Below are positions 20,621 through 24,730 of a DNA stretch of 64,000 nucleotides, one piece after another. Under the pieces are notes generated by a model, which saw only the letters and a program-made list of their open reading frames with translations, was not told the origin of the DNA and did not search any database. Made by a program: the position numbers and the translations under genes. Each line of letters opens with the position of its first letter. Within the stretch, counting starts at the first letter, position 1. The stretch comes from Eubacteriales bacterium. GTDB taxonomy: Bacteria; Bacillota; Clostridia; Oscillospirales; CAG-382. The DNA lies in contig JAZNCU010000029.1 in the NCBI GenBank assembly GCA_045587745.1, forward strand, positions 2,902 to 66,901, in the 5' to 3' direction.

Positions 20621-21589
20621 ATGAAGCTTGGAGTTATTACCGTTTTACTTGGCAACAAGCCCTTTGACGAGGCTCTCGGCTACCTTGCATCCCTCGGTAT
20701 TGAGGAGCTTGAGGTAGGCTGCGGCGGCTATCCCGGAAAAGCTCATTGCGATCCTGCCGTTCTTTTGAACGATGAGAACGCTCTTAACGAGTTCAAGGCT
20801 GCCGTAGATCGCCACGGCCTCAAAATCAACGCATTCGGATGCCACGGCAACCCTGTGCATCCCAACAAGGAAATTGCCCAAAAGTACCGTGACGATTGGC
20901 ACGGAGCAGTCCTCCTTGCCGAAAAGCTGGGTGTAAAAAAGCTCATCGGATTCTCGGGCTGTCCCGGTGATTGCGATGAGTCCAAGTACCCCAACTGGGT
21001 TACCTGCCCTTGGCCGGAGGATTACCTTGCCGTTCTTGACTATCAGTGGAAGATTCTCGTTGACTATTGGAAGGAGGAGGTGGGCTTCTGCCGCGCACAC
21101 GGTATTGAAAAGATCGCCTTCGAGATGCACCCCGGCTTTTGCGTATACAACCCTGCAACGCTTCTCCGCCTTCGATCCGAGGTAGGGGATGATATGATCG
21201 GTGCAAATTTTGATCCCTCCCACCTTATCTGGCAGGGAATCGATCCTGTTGCCGCAATCCGTGCGCTCGGTAGTGCAATCTACCACGTACACGCAAAGGA
21301 TACAAAAATCGACAAATACAATACCGCAGTCAACGGCGTTCTCGATACCAAGCACTACGGCGATGAGATAAACCGTTCCTGGATATTCCGCTCGGTAGGC
21401 TACGGCAACGATATGCAGTATTGGCGTGATATGATCAGCAACCTGCGTCTTGTCAGCTATGACGATATTCTCTCTATCGAGCACGAGGATTCGCTTATGA
21501 CGAGCTGTGAGGGTCTCGAAAAGGCTGTCGACTTCCTCAAGGACGTTATCATCCGTGAGCCCTCACCCAAGGAAATGTTCTGGGCGTAA
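20621..21589 (+). CDS. xylose-isomerase-like TIM-barrel protein (sugar phosphate isomerase/epimerase family)
   Basis: 322 aa with FEMHPG, FDPSHL, HVHAKD and SIEHED ligand-like motifs. This type is commonly paired with Gfo/Idh/MocA genes. Confidence 0.78.
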   Translation: MKLGVITVLLGNKPFDEALGYLASLGIEELEVGCGGYPGKAHCDPAVLLNDENALNEFKAAVDRHGLKINAFGCHGNPVHPNKEIAQKYRDDWHGAVLLAEKLGVKKLIGFSGCPGDCDESKYPNWVTCPWPEDYLAVLDYQWKILVDYWKEEVGFCRAHGIEKIAFEMHPGFCVYNPATLLRLRSEVGDDMIGANFDPSHLIWQGIDPVAAIRALGSAIYHVHAKDTKIDKYNTAVNGVLDTKHYGDEINRSWIFRSVGYGNDMQYWRDMISNLRLVSYDDILSIEHEDSLMTSCEGLEKAVDFLKDVIIREPSPKEMFWA

Positions 21590-21600
21590 ACGAATAATCA

Positions 21601-21633
21601 AAAATCCACTCTTTATCCCAAAGAGTGGATTTT
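21601..21633 (+). terminator. Rho-independent terminator of the sugar operon
   Basis: A 14-bp stem, AAAATCCACTCTTT / AAAGAGTGGATTTT, with loop ATCCC, followed by TATTATTT. Confidence 0.8.
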
Positions 21634-21646
21634 ATTATTTGCAGTT

Positions 21647-21796
21647 ATATTATTGCCTTGCGGCAATAGTTATTTTAACTTGCAAAGCAAATACCACTCG
21701 GCGTTAGCCGAATACCACTGCGAAGCAATATCACTCGCTGAATTACATTCAGCGAAAAAAACTGCGAGGCTCCCCAAAGGTTACTTCTCATAAGGA
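21647..21796. repeat. hairpin-array repeat, copy A (about 150 bp)
   Basis: Successive short palindromes are separated by ATAYCAC(T)-like linkers: ATTGCC/GGCAAT, TTGC/GCAA, TCGGC/GCCGA, TGC/GCA and TCGCTGAAT/ATTCAGCGA. The array is collinear with 22846-23038. Confidence 0.8.
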
Positions 21797-21800
21797 TGTT

Positions 21801-21833
21801 AAAAACCGACAGGATTTCGTTCTGTCGGTTTTT
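21801..21833 (-). terminator. Rho-independent terminator downstream of the AT-rich HIT gene (symmetric)
   Basis: Stem AAAAACCGACAG / CTGTCGGTTTTT with a 9-nt loop. T-runs are present on both strands. It lies 23 nt past the HIT gene stop. Confidence 0.75.
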
Positions 21834-21855
21834 GTTTTACGGATTGAAATAAATA

Positions 21856-22314
21856 TTACAATAGTTTTTCCAATTCTTTCAATAATTTTGTTTTCATCTC
21901 GTTTAATTCTTCCGTAGAAGGCCGATTATCCGAACTATACATCTTATCTATCGGATACCACCACACAGGACCTTGACCATTATTTCCGTAGTGTTCCAAG
22001 TCTCCTTTTACTCTCGGAAACAAGTGCCAGTGCAGATGTGTATCTCCGTTTCCTAATAGTTCATAATTCATTTTCTCTGCCCCAAACGCTTTCGCAACAG
22101 CTTCAGCAACGATAGACATTTCTTCCATGAACTTGATTTTTATACTACGTTTTAATTGAAATAGTTCCGTTATATGTTCTTTGCACAAAAATAGAGTGTA
22201 ACCCTTAAAATGTTGATTGTCTCCGATGACTACGTAACCTGTTACTAATTCTTTAACAAACCAAGGATTGGTATTTTCCTCGATCATTTTTATTCTATCG
22301 CATATTAAGCACAT
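21856..22314 (-). CDS. HIT (histidine triad) family protein, AT-rich paralog
   Basis: 152 aa with an N-terminal C-x-x-C (MCLICDRI) and the histidine triad THLHWHLFPR. The gene is markedly more AT-rich than its flanks. Confidence 0.8.
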   Translation of the reverse strand: MCLICDRIKMIEENTNPWFVKELVTGYVVIGDNQHFKGYTLFLCKEHITELFQLKRSIKIKFMEEMSIVAEAVAKAFGAEKMNYELLGNGDTHLHWHLFPRVKGDLEHYGNNGQGPVWWYPIDKMYSSDNRPSTEELNEMKTKLLKELEKLL

Positions 22315-22421
22315 AGATAACTCACCGCCGTAAACATTTACTAAATAAACATACTAAGACACAAGAAGAACCAGCATCGCAATTGTATGTACAAATGCAC
22401 TATTGGGATAACCCCAACCCA

Positions 22422-22772
22422 TTATTTAGATTTTATGGTTTTTAATGAAGAAATTAATATTCTGCGAATTGCGCCGGGATCGTTCTGCAATGTTTTATAT
22501 TCTTCTTCATTCATACAATCTGTTTCAAAAAGAATCTCTAACCAATATTCTGTTTCGTAACATTCTTTTTGGGCTATTTCAAGCTTTGAAATAAAATCGT
22601 TAGTACTTTGGGCATATTGCGCTTCGTGTAGATTTGCGCCAATGGAAGTAGCAGAACGAAGTAATTGGTTTATCAAAACCGATTCTTTGTGCTTTGATTT
22701 CATATCACGGCAAAGAAAAACAACCGCCTTAGCAAATTCTTTTGCCTTTTCTCTTAAAATACTATCCGCCAT
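22422..22772 (-). CDS. four-helix-bundle protein (23S rRNA intervening-sequence protein / PF05635-like)
   Basis: It shows the signature LLRSATSIGANLHEAQ plus F..KL.IA.KE..ET.YWL. The likely start is ATG 22772 (MADSILREKAKEF, 116 aa). The track ORF extends to 22820. Confidence 0.75.
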   Translation of the reverse strand: MADSILREKAKEFAKAVVFLCRDMKSKHKESVLINQLLRSATSIGANLHEAQYAQSTNDFISKLEIAQKECYETEYWLEILFETDCMNEEEYKTLQNDPGAIRRILISSLKTIKSK

Positions 22773-22845
22773 TCTTATCACTTCAAAATTCACTATACAC
22801 AGAAGAATAATGCTTTTCAAGTTTTATTACGACTTCGTCGGTGTG

Positions 22846-23038
22846 ATATTATTGCAAAAAGCAATAGTGTTATTGAAACCTTGCGGTTTCAGTGTTATTT
22901 TATTCGCCAAACTCGGCGTAGCCGAATATCACGATGCGCAGCGTCATATCACTGCGAAGCAATATAACTCGCCAAATATATTTGGCGAATAAAACTGCGA
23001 GACTTCCTTATGAGAAGTCACGCAAAGGAAGCCTCGCC
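22846..23038. repeat. hairpin-array repeat, copy B (about 193 bp)
   Basis: It has the same module order as copy A, including ATATTATTGC..GCAATAGT, ACTCGGCG(T)TAGCCGAATA, ATAYCACTGCGAAGCAATAT and AAAACTGCGAG. Two extra hairpin modules are present. Its last nested hairpin abuts the tsf stop. Confidence 0.8.
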
Positions 23039-23046
23039 TAAAATTA

Positions 23047-23967
23047 TCAGCCGTTAACGAGCTTGTCGATTTCTGCTGCGAAATCGTCTTCTCTCTTCTC
23101 AATGCCTTCGCCGCGCTCGTACTTGATGAACTTAACGATCTTAATGCTGCCGCCAAGCTCTTTAGCAACGGATGCGGTGTAGGAACCAACGGTCATATCC
23201 TCGTCCTTAACGTAAGCCTGCTCGGTGAGACAGTTGTTATCGTAGAACTTGCTGATTCTGCCGGTAACCATCTTCTCTTTAACTGCGTCGGGCTTGCTTG
23301 CGAGCTTGGGATCGTTGGAAATCTGAGTGAGGAGGATCTCCTTCTCGCTCTCAACAACGCTTGCGGGAACCGAAGCGATGTCAACGTAGCCGGGGTTCAT
23401 AGCAGCGATCTGCATACAAACGTTCTTTGCATACTCGTTGAAAGCATCCTTGTCGCCGCAATCGGTATCAAATACGGTAACAACGCCTGCGCTTCCGCCG
23501 CCGTGAATGTAGGTGCCTACAACGCCGTCAAGAATATCAAAACGACGGATGCTCATGTTCTCACCGATGGTGAAGATCATGTTCTTGAGCTCAGCCTCAA
23601 CGGTAACGTCGGTTCCGTCGAAGTTAAGAGCGTTAAGAGCAGCAAGATCAGCAGGCTTGTTGGCAACGATAGTTCTGAGAATGCCCTTTACAAAGTCCTT
23701 GAATGCCTGGTTCTTTGCAACGAAGTCGGTCTCAGCGTTAACCTCGATAATAGCGGTGCAGCCGTTATCGGAAAGAATATCTACAATACCCTCTGCAGCG
23801 ATTCTGTCAGCTTTTTTAGCTGCAACGGAAAGTCCCTTTTCACGGAGATATTTGATAGCCTCGTCAAAATTGCCGTCCGACTCAACAAGTGCCTTTTTGC
23901 ACTCCATCATGCCGCAACCGGTCTTCTTACGGAGCTCCATTACGTCTTTTGCGGAAATGTTAGCCAT
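23047..23967 (-). CDS. tsf: translation elongation factor Ts
   Basis: The N-terminus is a UBA-like domain, MANISAKDVMELRKKTGCGMMECKKAL.ES.GN.DEAI..LREKG. The preferred start is ATG 23967 (GGAGG 8 nt upstream). Confidence 0.95.
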   Translation of the reverse strand: MANISAKDVMELRKKTGCGMMECKKALVESDGNFDEAIKYLREKGLSVAAKKADRIAAEGIVDILSDNGCTAIIEVNAETDFVAKNQAFKDFVKGILRTIVANKPADLAALNALNFDGTDVTVEAELKNMIFTIGENMSIRRFDILDGVVGTYIHGGGSAGVVTVFDTDCGDKDAFNEYAKNVCMQIAAMNPGYVDIASVPASVVESEKEILLTQISNDPKLASKPDAVKEKMVTGRISKFYDNNCLTEQAYVKDEDMTVGSYTASVAKELGGSIKIVKFIKYERGEGIEKREDDFAAEIDKLVNG

Positions 23968-23992
23968 TTTATACTCCTCCAAAAATCAATAA

Positions 23993-24730
23993 TTACTCAG
24001 CGCTGCCTTCGATAATATCGTCAGCATCGGCAGAATCGGTAAGCTGCTCGCCCTGCTTGCCCTCAAGGATAGCATCGGACATAACGGATGCGATAAGCTT
24101 GATAGCACGGATAGCGTCGTCATTACCGGGGATAACGTAGTCGACCTCGTCGGGATCGCAGTTGGTATCAACGATAGCTACGATGGGAATACCGAGCTTT
24201 TTAGCCTCGTCAACAGCGTTCTTTTCCTTTTTGGGGTCAACGATGAAGATAGCGGAGGGAAGACCCTTCATGTCCTTGATACCGCCAAGGATCTTTTCAA
24301 GGTCAGCCATCTCCTTCTGGAGGGAAGCAACCTCTTTTTTGGGAAGAAGGTCAAAGGTGCCGTCTTCAGCCATTTTGTTGAGGTTGTGGAGCTTCTGGAT
24401 AGACTTTTTGATGGTTTTGTAGTTGGTGAGCATGCCGCCGAGCCAACGTACGTTTACGTAGTACATCTCGCTTCTCAGAGCCTCTTCCTTGATAGCGTCC
24501 TGAGCCTGCTTTTTGGTGCCTACAAAGAGGATGTTGCCGCCCTCAGCCGCGATGTCACGGATGAAGAGGTAAGCTTCCTCGATTTTTTTAACGGTCTTCT
24601 GCAAGTCGATGATGTAGATACCGTTTCTCTCGGTGAAGATGTACTCAGCCATCTTCGGGTTCCATCTTCTCGTCTGGTGACCAAAGTGTACACCTGCTTC
24701 GAGAAGCTGCTTCATGGATACAACAGACAT
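23993..24730 (-). CDS. rpsB: 30S ribosomal protein S2
   Basis: 245 aa with [22 protein letters not shown] and a GGMLTN motif. Confidence 0.97.

Follow-up and report, generated by a model that had tools for sequence, protein, structure and literature searches.

A hairpin-rich repeat that occurs twice in a stretch of clostridial DNA is, we find, a member of the Gut-1 family (Rfam RF01706; E = 5e-8 and 6e-6 for its two copies) and stands beside a gene for a four-helix-bundle (4HB) protein. The stretch, 64,000 nt of contig JAZNCU010000029.1 from a Eubacteriales bacterium, is referred to below as the window, and positions are counted from its first letter. A first-pass annotation, made from the letters alone, had described one copy (copy A) at 21647-21796 as an array of mini-hairpins with short linkers, and had pointed to a second copy with the same order of modules. 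Both descriptions hold: the second copy (copy B) is a direct repeat at 22820-23023, and it is the complete version. Copies A and B bracket two genes, both on the minus strand, encoding the 4HB protein and a HIT-domain protein, and the 4HB gene is the only recurrent specific partner of the element in the genomes that we compared. On balance, we favour the reading in which the Gut-1-type composite acts in cis as part of a dispersed 4HB cassette, whose heptamer arrays would be the binding sites of the cognate 4HB oligomer.

Gut-1 was described from 43 representatives, found in human-gut metagenomes only and of unknown function, and was rated 'RNA: Y, cis-regulatory: n' (Weinberg et al. 2010, PMC2864571); Rfam types RF01706 as Gene; sRNA. 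We found no later paper on Gut-1 in the literature searched. The Rfam model is 77 nt long and has a gathering score of 50 bits. In a permissive scan, both window copies align with the model over its full length (1-77/77) on the minus strand, copy B with 48.3 bits (E 5.2e-8, 22921-22997) and copy A with 40.2 bits (E 5.6e-6, 21686-21764). Since both miss the gathering score, by 2-10 bits, a default Rfam scan of the window is empty. The shortfall is one of score and not of architecture. The window copies have the Gut-1 layout of three consecutive hairpins with GUGA(A/U)AU separators, in which the AU and GU of the linkers close each stem; the closing pairs U-G, A-U and U-G are invariant in 37/37 copies; and the Gut-1 seed itself contains GUGAUAU-type members whose layout and flanks are as in the window. 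Seed rows BAAZ01000095.1 and BAAZ01025322.1, for example, read as a terminator, GUUAUAUUCGCC..GGCGAG, GUGAUAU hairpins and then AUAUCAC hairpins, and the alignment of Weinberg et al. annotates the longer 'T' hairpin described below, together with the AGUUUUAUU that follows it, as a terminator, in agreement with our terminator-like reading.

Related loci score higher. The comparative data are all contigs of metagenome-assembled genomes (MAGs) or metagenomes, on which the calls of neighbouring open reading frames (ORFs) are heuristic; single loci are cited by L numbers where needed. Among 18 such loci, 12 pass the Gut-1 gathering score (50.9-74 bits), and so does L058 (56.5 bits), in which Rfam Gut-1 matches one half of the element on each strand. 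From copies that pass Gut-1 we built a covariance model of the core, R1, which gives copy B 149.9 bits over 22818-22996 and copy A 85.7 bits. A search of the window with R1 returns copies A and B only, each also matched in reverse because the layout is pseudo-symmetric, and no other heptamer arrays were found in the window. By architecture, seed homology and significant E-values, the window repeat is a Gut-1 member. The first-pass annotation did not recognise the element, and had itself named a match to an already described family as the result that would tell against it; given this match, the novelty of the element itself fails by the annotation's own reasoning.

The window-type element shares with Gut-1 the three short hairpins, the GUGA(A/U)AU spacers, the AU...GU closing pairs and the terminator hairpin in front. 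It adds to the model and to the published description an inverted second array, a long-range helix, a terminator geometry and the 4HB partner, as well as new hosts, the Acutalibacteraceae and Oscillospiraceae of ruminant guts. In minus-strand order, the composite opens with a terminator hairpin and goes on with the sense array (3-4 hairpins that GUGAUAU separates), an 11-bp long-range helix and an oppositely oriented array. Its core measures about 175 nt, as judged from oriented copies and a 37-sequence MAFFT alignment. Read on the plus strand, the core starts with four (A)GTGATAT linkers that hold three 6-9-bp hairpins, then TTxTATTCGCC and a short centre; it goes on with four mini-hairpins split by AATATCACT (GCGAAGC always included), GGCGAATAyAACT and the longer T hairpin, whose stem is variable and whose loop is conserved across copies. 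The GTGATAT half folds better on the plus strand in 51/57 copies, and the ATATCAC half folds better on the minus strand in 57/57. Because the halves are sense on opposite strands, and because L058 gives one Gut-1 match per strand, we conclude that the element is two convergent Gut-1 arrays. The linker of the first-pass annotation is thus real, but was read on the strand opposite to that of Rfam; the annotation had also overlooked the upstream half, whose linkers are inverted (AGTGATAT), as well as the long-range helix, the terminator hairpin and the bracketed genes.

The annotation had also claimed, from two copies, that the stems are kept by compensatory change, and proposed that more copies should decide whether this exceeds chance. 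We used 37 independent full-length copies, aligned with MAFFT without structure, and 500 shuffles. Pairing is found in 96% of cells, and 26 pairs show double changes. Double-change cells number 259 vs 79 in the shuffles; none of the 500 shuffles is as high, and no slid register comes close. The long-range helix TTxTATTCGCC : GGCGAATAyAA, with arms about 85 nt apart, is concordant in 74/77 copies by way of T-A, A-T and C-G pairs. A GUGAAAU-type copy has an equivalent helix of wholly different sequence (AAAUUCGUUCC:GGAACGAAUUU), as do GCGAUAU-type copies (AUAUAAAUUC:GAAUUUAUAU). These results support selection on, or at least maintenance of, secondary structure, as had been proposed. Within the window, the compensated change of module 6 is borne out, as two adjacent pairs that read TG/CA in copy A and CA/TG in copy B (TCGCTGAAT/ATTCAGCGA vs TCGCCAAAT/ATTTGGCGA). 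Module 1 is a different case. It had been said to keep its stem and swap its loop, which depends upon the copy B hairpin that is chosen; in MAFFT and in the covariance model, its counterpart is GAAACC-ttgc-GGTTTC, with an identical loop and a compensated stem. Copies A and B also fold more stably than shuffled sequence (z = -5.2 on the plus strand and -5.4 on the minus strand for A; -6.6 and -7.6 for B), and a 23-mer spanning two linkers occurs at these two copies only, with 0 expected.

Variable stem positions are about 97% Watson-Crick, and therefore RNA and single-stranded DNA cannot be told apart from them. We considered, and rejected, the assignment of a single RNA strand from wobble pairs: the variable positions hold 21 G-U pairs on the plus strand vs 3 on the minus strand, and, owing to the invariant closing pairs, the two halves prefer different strands. 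Pairing of linkers across the halves (AGTGATAT with ATATCACT, giving a rod of four-way junctions) was likewise rejected, since linker variants do not co-vary; several copies in the 37-copy alignment have ATACCAC or ATAACAC while all partners stay GTGATAT. No conserved promoter lies upstream of either end of the element; the sequence there is unrelated from one locus to the next, or consists of a terminator or the start of a gene. In L099 (4170-4390 and 7450-7590), L054 and L110, there are five or six linkers in a single orientation (ATATCAC) and no inverted half. The 11-bp inverted repeat around the sense half of canonical copies would allow inversion of that half.

The evidence for a protein partner comes from the 4HB gene. 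Homologues of the window protein number 4456 at E <= 1e-20, and the best 120 of these 4456 are 82-95% identical to it. Eight loci were fetched for four close homologues, and 8/8 have the full composite directly upstream of the gene in matching orientation, even as the cassette follows different genes (yajC, a PHP-domain gene, a radical-SAM/methyltransferase gene and, at one locus, two unannotated genes of opposite orientation). A second 4HB lineage, 47% identical and with 5140 homologues, has the same architecture and GCGAUAU/AUAUCGC linkers in every context sampled. Over 28 loci, the type of heptamer (GUGAUAU vs GCGAUAU) and the 4HB lineage partition perfectly. One genome can hold several heptamer types: a classical GUGAAAU/AUUUCAU Gut-1 composite (74 bits; L015 1640-1835) lies 1.7 kb from a GUGAUAU-type copy on one MAG contig, and L004 has both GUGAUAU- and GCGAUAU-type copies.

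Other parts of the cassette recur with the gene. A conserved tail follows the 4HB stop codon in 6/6 other loci examined; five of the original loci share the arrangement. In the orientation of the gene, the tail reads TTGGGC-nnn-GCCCAA, then GCATTTGTAC..GTACAAATGC, ending GATGCTGGTTCT, in about 55 nt; we looked for it as a known or rRNA-derived RNA, and it has no Rfam match. In ORF-less copies of the L058 type, a hairpin replaces the ORF and both composite and tail persist; there the tail extends to about 165 nt with its own terminator (L058 3625-3760). A TTGAAA-17-TATAAT site precedes the 4HB gene in L202 and L204 as well. In L214 and L216, a second half-array lies 3' of the stop codon, so that, as in the window, direct array repeats flank the 4HB gene on both sides. 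The gene downstream of 4HB varies across the window, L204, L208, L210, L202 and L030: it is HIT in the window and elsewhere a GNAT acetyltransferase (twice, once overlapping the 4HB stop), with a methyltransferase, a helix-turn-helix (HTH) protein and a 233-aa membrane-anchored ORF as further cargo among those loci. The cassette has a promoter and no terminator after the tail, and it may transcribe variable small genes or serve as their landing pad. In L210, L214 and L216, which represent three GCGAUAU sub-lineages, the cassette follows a tRNA (uracil-5)-methyltransferase-like gene; this shared position suggests an old, vertically inherited insertion or a preferred site. The literature that we searched contains no paper linking PF05635 to Gut-1, and we know of no role for PF05635 / TIGR02436 proteins outside the Avd protein of diversity-generating retroelements (DGRs).

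The two copies and their surroundings in the window are as follows.

20621-21589, plus strand: xylose-isomerase-like TIM-barrel (sugar-phosphate isomerase-like) gene, upstream of copy A
21601-21633: intact bidirectional terminator hairpin, host sequence belonging to the upstream gene; left limit of copy A
21643-21763, minus strand: copy A, a truncated, degenerate Gut-1 composite (Rfam match and model R1)
21652-21667: copy A stem ATTGCC-ttgc-GGCAAT
21680-21690: copy A stem TTGC-aaa-GCAA
21691 and 21712: copy A linker ATACCACT
21698-21711: copy A stem TCGGC-gtta-GCCGA
21719-21727: copy A stem TGC-gaa-GCA
21728: copy A linker ATATCACT
21735-21755: copy A stem TCGCTGAAT-taca-ATTCAGCGA
21764-21775: GCGAGGCTCCCC, read from the inverted repeat, and by analogy with L030 and L064, as the 5' arm of the copy A terminal hairpin; partner now at 23027-23038
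21781-21799: TTACTTCTCATAAGGATGT, inverted copy of the loop and 3' arm of the copy B terminal hairpin; left end of the inserted unit, resembling a terminal inverted repeat (TIR)
21801-21833: hairpin AAAAACCGACAG...CTGTCGGTTTTT, a bidirectional terminator, where the HIT gene ends (3')
21856-22314, minus strand: HIT-domain gene, 152 aa (PF01230, E 4.3e-7), downstream of the 4HB gene
22368-22420, minus strand: conserved tail motif with two small hairpins, GGGTTGGGGTTATCCCAA...GCATTTGTACATACAATTGCGATGCTGGTTC on the minus strand, immediately 3' of the 4HB stop codon
22422-22772, minus strand: 4HB gene, 116 aa from the ATG at 22772 (PF05635 23S_rRNA_IVP, TIGR02436)
22792-22820, minus strand: promoter-like site TTGAAA-17-TATAGT for the 4HB gene, abutting the array end
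22820-22908, plus strand: copy B half with (A)GTGATAT linkers (AGTTTTAT, GTGTGATAT, GTGTTAT, GTGTTAT); hairpins 22830-22840, 22850-22866 and 22874-22891
22898-22908: TTTTATTCGCC, one arm of the long-range helix, at the end of the plus-strand half
22913-22996, minus strand: copy B Gut-1 'sense' half; hairpins 22913-22925, 22933-22945, 22953-22961 and 22969-22988
22984-22994: GGCGAATAAAA, second arm of the long-range helix, doubling as terminator U-tract
22997-23023, minus strand: terminal T hairpin GCGAGACTTC-CTTATGA-GAAGTCaCGC, intrinsic-terminator-like, followed by AGUUUUAUU
23027-23038: GGAAGCCTCGCC, 3' arm pairing with 21764-21775
23047-23982, minus strand: tsf (EF-Ts, by Pfam), in the transcription unit that ends at the element
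23993-24730: rpsB, upstream of tsf

All five stems that the first-pass annotation gave for copy A are present in the sequence, with their linkers. The last 33 nt of its interval (21764-21796) are not modules; they are one arm of a split hairpin and an inverted copy of the terminal hairpin of copy B. Copy A contains degenerate inverted linkers AGTTATATT and AGTTATTTTA and one hairpin (21652-21667), which four mini-hairpins follow; it is without one hairpin and without the TTATTCGCC arm, the 5' arm of the long-range helix. The linkers of the copy B sense half are ATATCAC or ATATAAC (GUGAUAU on the minus strand). The T hairpin of copy B lies about 23 nt past the tsf stop codon, and the 4HB gene starts 48 nt from the last copy B linker. 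The 4HB protein matches its family in Pfam (E 3.7e-26) and NCBIfam (E 1.1e-29); the nearest structure in the PDB, 2RLD (E 7.6e-30), contains five chains. The ATAYCAC string occurs 31 times in the window vs 11 +/- 3 expected, about 8 times in or next to the two copies; the remaining excess falls elsewhere in the window, mostly in coding sequence.

The arrangement suggests an order of events. Copy A would be an old, degenerate copy between the converging TIM-barrel gene and tsf, and copy B a full cassette lodged inside the terminal hairpin of this older copy. The sequences 21764-21799 and 23002-23037 form an inverted repeat of 36 nt that is 78% complementary, and 'AAA' stands at both junctions of the split copy A hairpin. 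The unit inside that hairpin comprises, in order, an inverted T-like end, the bidirectional terminator, HIT, the tail, 4HB, the promoter, core B (22820-22996) and the T hairpin, and between the two copies the GC content dips to 0.42 vs about 0.49. L030 and L064 have an end structure that matches the window unit, with different cargo or none: a motif of the TTACTTCTCATAAGGATGT type stands at the left end of the unit in both, and L030 has a similar hairpin at the position matching the HIT-gene terminator.

Elsewhere, the element is widespread and its placement is regular. A search of one-genome-per-species contigs with an exact 20-mer from the repeat gave at least 120 stretches, in more than 100 MAGs, nearly all of them Acutalibacteraceae, Oscillospiraceae, Faecousia, Christensenellaceae or unclassified Clostridia from ruminant and other guts. 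On the T-hairpin side, the adjoining gene points towards the element in 67/82 cases, its stop codon usually 40-65 nt from the core. Adjacent tRNA genes are in this converging geometry in 12/12 cases, at 32-146 nt (ten of them at 32-41 nt), and other copies lie directly after tmRNA, or after a tRNA that follows 5S rRNA. The side opposite the T hairpin is mixed, with 39 co-directional gene starts and 27 converging gene ends. Some copies are probably at the ends of rRNA operons: L025, L050 and others share long, spurious-looking ORFs that resemble antisense reading frames of rRNA. The flanks of the loci contain about 13 extra copies per about 770 kb, from which the copy number per genome is a rough extrapolation. 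In one MAG, three copies have cores that are 98-100% identical and flanks that are unrelated. The repeat evidently breaks the assemblies of these MAGs, as contigs (megahit k141) end inside the element, about 66 nt from the anchor, in L008, L016, L041, L061, L072, L098, L106, L112 and L118.

Several observations bear on how copies arrive. Core and T hairpin, together with a 165-nt left part that has a terminator of its own, form a larger unit of about 430 bp, which shows 85-96% identity across species between unrelated flanking genes. Locus-specific inverted arms with an A-run and a T-run, such as CAAAGAAACATCGGC ... GCCGATGTTTCTTTG, enclose 33/62 copies vs 5/62 controls. An inverted partial copy of the T hairpin stands at the far end of 16/62 copies vs 5/62 controls, in many of them about 20 nt inside the left arm, and the element junctions are A-rich (AAA/AA). 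These features point to insertion into the loop of pre-existing bidirectional terminators; the split terminator-like hairpin may, alternatively, be a closing stem that is itself selected. No unambiguous target-site duplication was seen at these junctions. Nor was an empty site recovered, including among 80 metagenome loci with EF-Ts relatives (43-81% identity), 0/80 of which have the element after tsf; the two closest relatives (80-81% identity) have plain terminators and different synteny. L015 and L043 were considered as a filled and empty pair and set aside, because they differ by a GUGAAAU-type copy plus a small gene with no clean indel. A phage origin was rejected as well, on the basis of one match only in 2.9 million viral contigs; this match (L201 597-740, IMG/VR) is near the end of a 10.9-kb contig and could be host DNA beside a prophage. 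Clustering of 278 neighbouring ORFs, with Pfam run on only some of the neighbours, gave no recurrent transposase-like family. A 360-aa XRE-type HTH protein was dismissed as a recurrent neighbour, its instances being distant paralogues only, at about 30% identity.

We may now set out the cassette reading as a whole. On the minus strand, which is the strand of tsf and of the 4HB gene, the intrinsic-terminator hairpin ends the upstream transcription unit. It is followed by the array of 3-4 short hairpins with invariant GUGAUAU, closed by the 11-bp long-range helix, and by the second array, carrying the heptamer inverted. We read this block as the non-coding part of a cassette that is dispersed and probably mobile. 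In its full version, the cassette continues with a promoter, a PF05635 gene (of the family known as S23p, '23S rRNA intervening-sequence protein' or Avd) and the 55-nt tail; ORF-less derivatives lie behind genes, tRNAs and tmRNA, many of them in a split terminator-like hairpin. The hairpins would keep the heptamers apart and exposed, and the two convergent heptamer arrays (4 + 4) are the putative cognate nucleic-acid sites of an oligomeric 4HB protein, which would act in cis next to the promoter of its gene and in trans where ORF-less copies follow terminators. Family membership, anatomy, covariation, terminator geometry, the association of array with gene and the joint change of heptamer and protein are observed; binding, its outcome and mobility are proposed. 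Candidate outcomes of the predicted binding are a roadblock or insulator, a back-up of termination, autoregulation, and spread of the cassette.

A number of points weigh against this reading. All of its support is MAG and metagenome sequence. The co-variation of heptamer and protein involves two independent lineages, and could reflect co-inheritance in one mobile unit instead of recognition. About 90% of copies are without the ORF. The window-type array, situated between a terminator and the 4HB promoter, may be barely transcribed, and its position therefore leaves RNA or DNA as the ligand ambiguous. The stems, with few G-U pairs, are unusual for a classical structured RNA. Finally, neither an empty site nor, among the clustered neighbours, a recurrent transposase next to the copies was found, and the split terminator could be the closing stem mentioned above.

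It is important, then, to weigh what else the element might be. One reading, which we regard as fairly unlikely, treats the copies as REP/BIME-like punctuation in cis with no dedicated protein, that is, as fail-safe bidirectional terminators and blocks to 3' exonucleases behind highly expressed units, with 4HB as frequent cargo. Such a role fits copies that are consistently placed just behind a terminator, many of them between convergent genes, with each half 'sense' for transcripts reading inward and individual units flagged as a terminator-like hairpin plus T-rich tail; it also fits the absence of the 4HB gene from most copies. It leaves unexplained, however, why the heptamers are near-invariant across more than 100 species despite drift of the stems, why they switch together with the 4HB lineage, and why the long-range helix is conserved.

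The element could also be a DNA site. In a reading that we hold to be quite unlikely, the arrays fold in single-stranded DNA, as attC or REP sites do, and are recognised for recombination or mobility by a recombinase or transposase encoded elsewhere; the 4HB cassette and small genes beside it would move by way of the arrays as ends or attachment sites. The direct array repeats that bracket the 4HB gene in the window (A, B), L214 and L216 fit such a reading, as do the variable small cargo genes adjoining 4HB, the TIR-like ends and split host hairpins, the GC dip and the nearly pure Watson-Crick pairing; GCGAAGC and GNA loops, moreover, form exceptionally stable DNA mini-hairpins. Yet no recombinase or transposase recurs among the clustered neighbouring ORFs, no clear target-site duplication or empty site was found, the viral contigs yield a single match, and the identity and order of the hairpins are conserved in the manner of an orthologous structure, unlike generic ends.

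We consider it very unlikely that the element is a free-standing gene for a trans-acting small RNA (sRNA), for example a protein sponge with repeated GUGAUAU sites, even though Rfam and the original description (PMC2864571) classify Gut-1 along these lines, covariation is strong, and the alignment shows an extended -10-like TGATATTAT with TTGAAA 17 nt upstream inside many copies. A terminator hairpin immediately precedes the motif, and a terminator often guards its other side too; the two halves are sense on opposite strands, no promoter is conserved upstream of either end, and genomes hold several to probably tens of copies with variable module number. Lastly, templated correction of quasi-palindromes by intrastrand template switching is an established mutational mechanism that would make the 'compensatory' changes mutational and the wobbles few, as they are, but as an account of an element with no selected function it is scarcely credible, since it explains neither the invariant non-palindromic linkers and hairpin order across more than 100 species, nor a long-range helix with widely separated arms, nor the fixed geometry relative to terminators.

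How, then, does the element compare with known systems? The first-pass annotation had likened it to BOX or REP modular repeats and to iteron-like protein-binding arrays, and these analogies are apt. BOX of Streptococcus pneumoniae and Correia/MITE-type repeats are, like the window-type element, modular and intergenic, with variable module number, strong predicted structure and side-effects as terminators or promoters. BOX modules, however, are sequence-conserved blocks of about 45-60 bp, whereas the window-type element conserves only a 7-nt linker and its stems co-vary. Like REP/BIME with RAYT, it occurs outside genes in many dispersed copies, behind 3' ends or where genes converge, with units in both orientations, and combines a hairpin with a short conserved single-stranded motif; in both systems there are many ORF-less copies and a few beside a dedicated, repeat-flanked protein gene. 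Unlike RAYT, a Y1/HUH transposase, the window-type partner is a non-enzymatic-looking four-helix bundle; the hairpins differ within a unit and are positionally conserved; and copy number is apparently in the tens, not hundreds. No Y1 (IS200/IS605-like) transposase flanked by repeats was found among the clustered ORFs.

The DGR accessory protein Avd is also a member of the four-helix-bundle superfamily, and it functions in complex with a structured non-coding RNA that lies beside its gene; PF05635 is listed in PMC10053308. The window cassette differs in that its neighbours are HIT, EF-Ts and S2, and the called flanking genes of 21 4HB loci and the window include no reverse transcriptase family or template/variable repeats. 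A further comparison is with the intervening sequences (IVSs) of 23S rRNA that bear S23p, in Coxiella and Leptospira (PMC4990558). In Coxiella, the IVS has tandem heptamers GACAGAT x3-4 just upstream of the S23p ORF and a 28-bp terminal stem, and is sited in a 23S rRNA hairpin loop; the S23p of X. campestris is a pentamer (PMC4990558). The two systems have in common the PF05635 protein family, a length of a few hundred nt, versions with an ORF and versions in which it has decayed, and heptamer repeats just upstream of the ORF. The window-type element probably also resembles the IVS in lying in the loop of an older hairpin, with inverted repeats at its ends. They differ in that the window-type element lies in or behind the terminators of mRNAs and tRNAs, not in rRNA, and in that its heptamers are separated by hairpins and come in two orientations. 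No rRNA match was found in the window, nor any to large-subunit rRNA at E <= 10 in 21500-23200; the element sits between tsf and the sugar-phosphate isomerase-like gene, outside 23S rRNA. It works like REP/BIME-RAYT and like the S23p IVS, yet it belongs to neither class, as it has no Y1 transposase and is not in rRNA.

The likeness to the IVS allows a broader and tentative suggestion, which we regard as possible: Gut-1 arrays and S23p/Avd-like 4HB genes may be one 'IVS-like' selfish cassette that occupies hairpin loops, those of terminators here and of 23S helices in the IVS, its lineage-specific heptamer arrays bound by its own pentameric protein. If true, this would explain together the orphan Gut-1, the S23p family outside DGRs and the spread of IVS-type elements.

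The element itself is already catalogued as Gut-1. What appears to be unreported is, foremost, the 4HB partnership, and with it the description of the composite, its hosts and its geometry relative to terminators. Since 2010, Gut-1 has stood in Rfam as a metagenome-only motif with a one-line description; it now has named hosts, in Acutalibacteraceae, Oscillospiraceae and other Clostridia of ruminant and other guts, and it explains contig breaks in their MAGs. PF05635 / TIGR02436 proteins are very abundant, with thousands of close homologues in each of the two lineages, and the origin and spread of the S23p-encoding intervening sequences of 23S rRNA is a long-standing puzzle. The tight adjacency of array and 4HB gene (28/28 loci, with the heptamer switching with the lineage) joins these three loose ends into one testable hypothesis.

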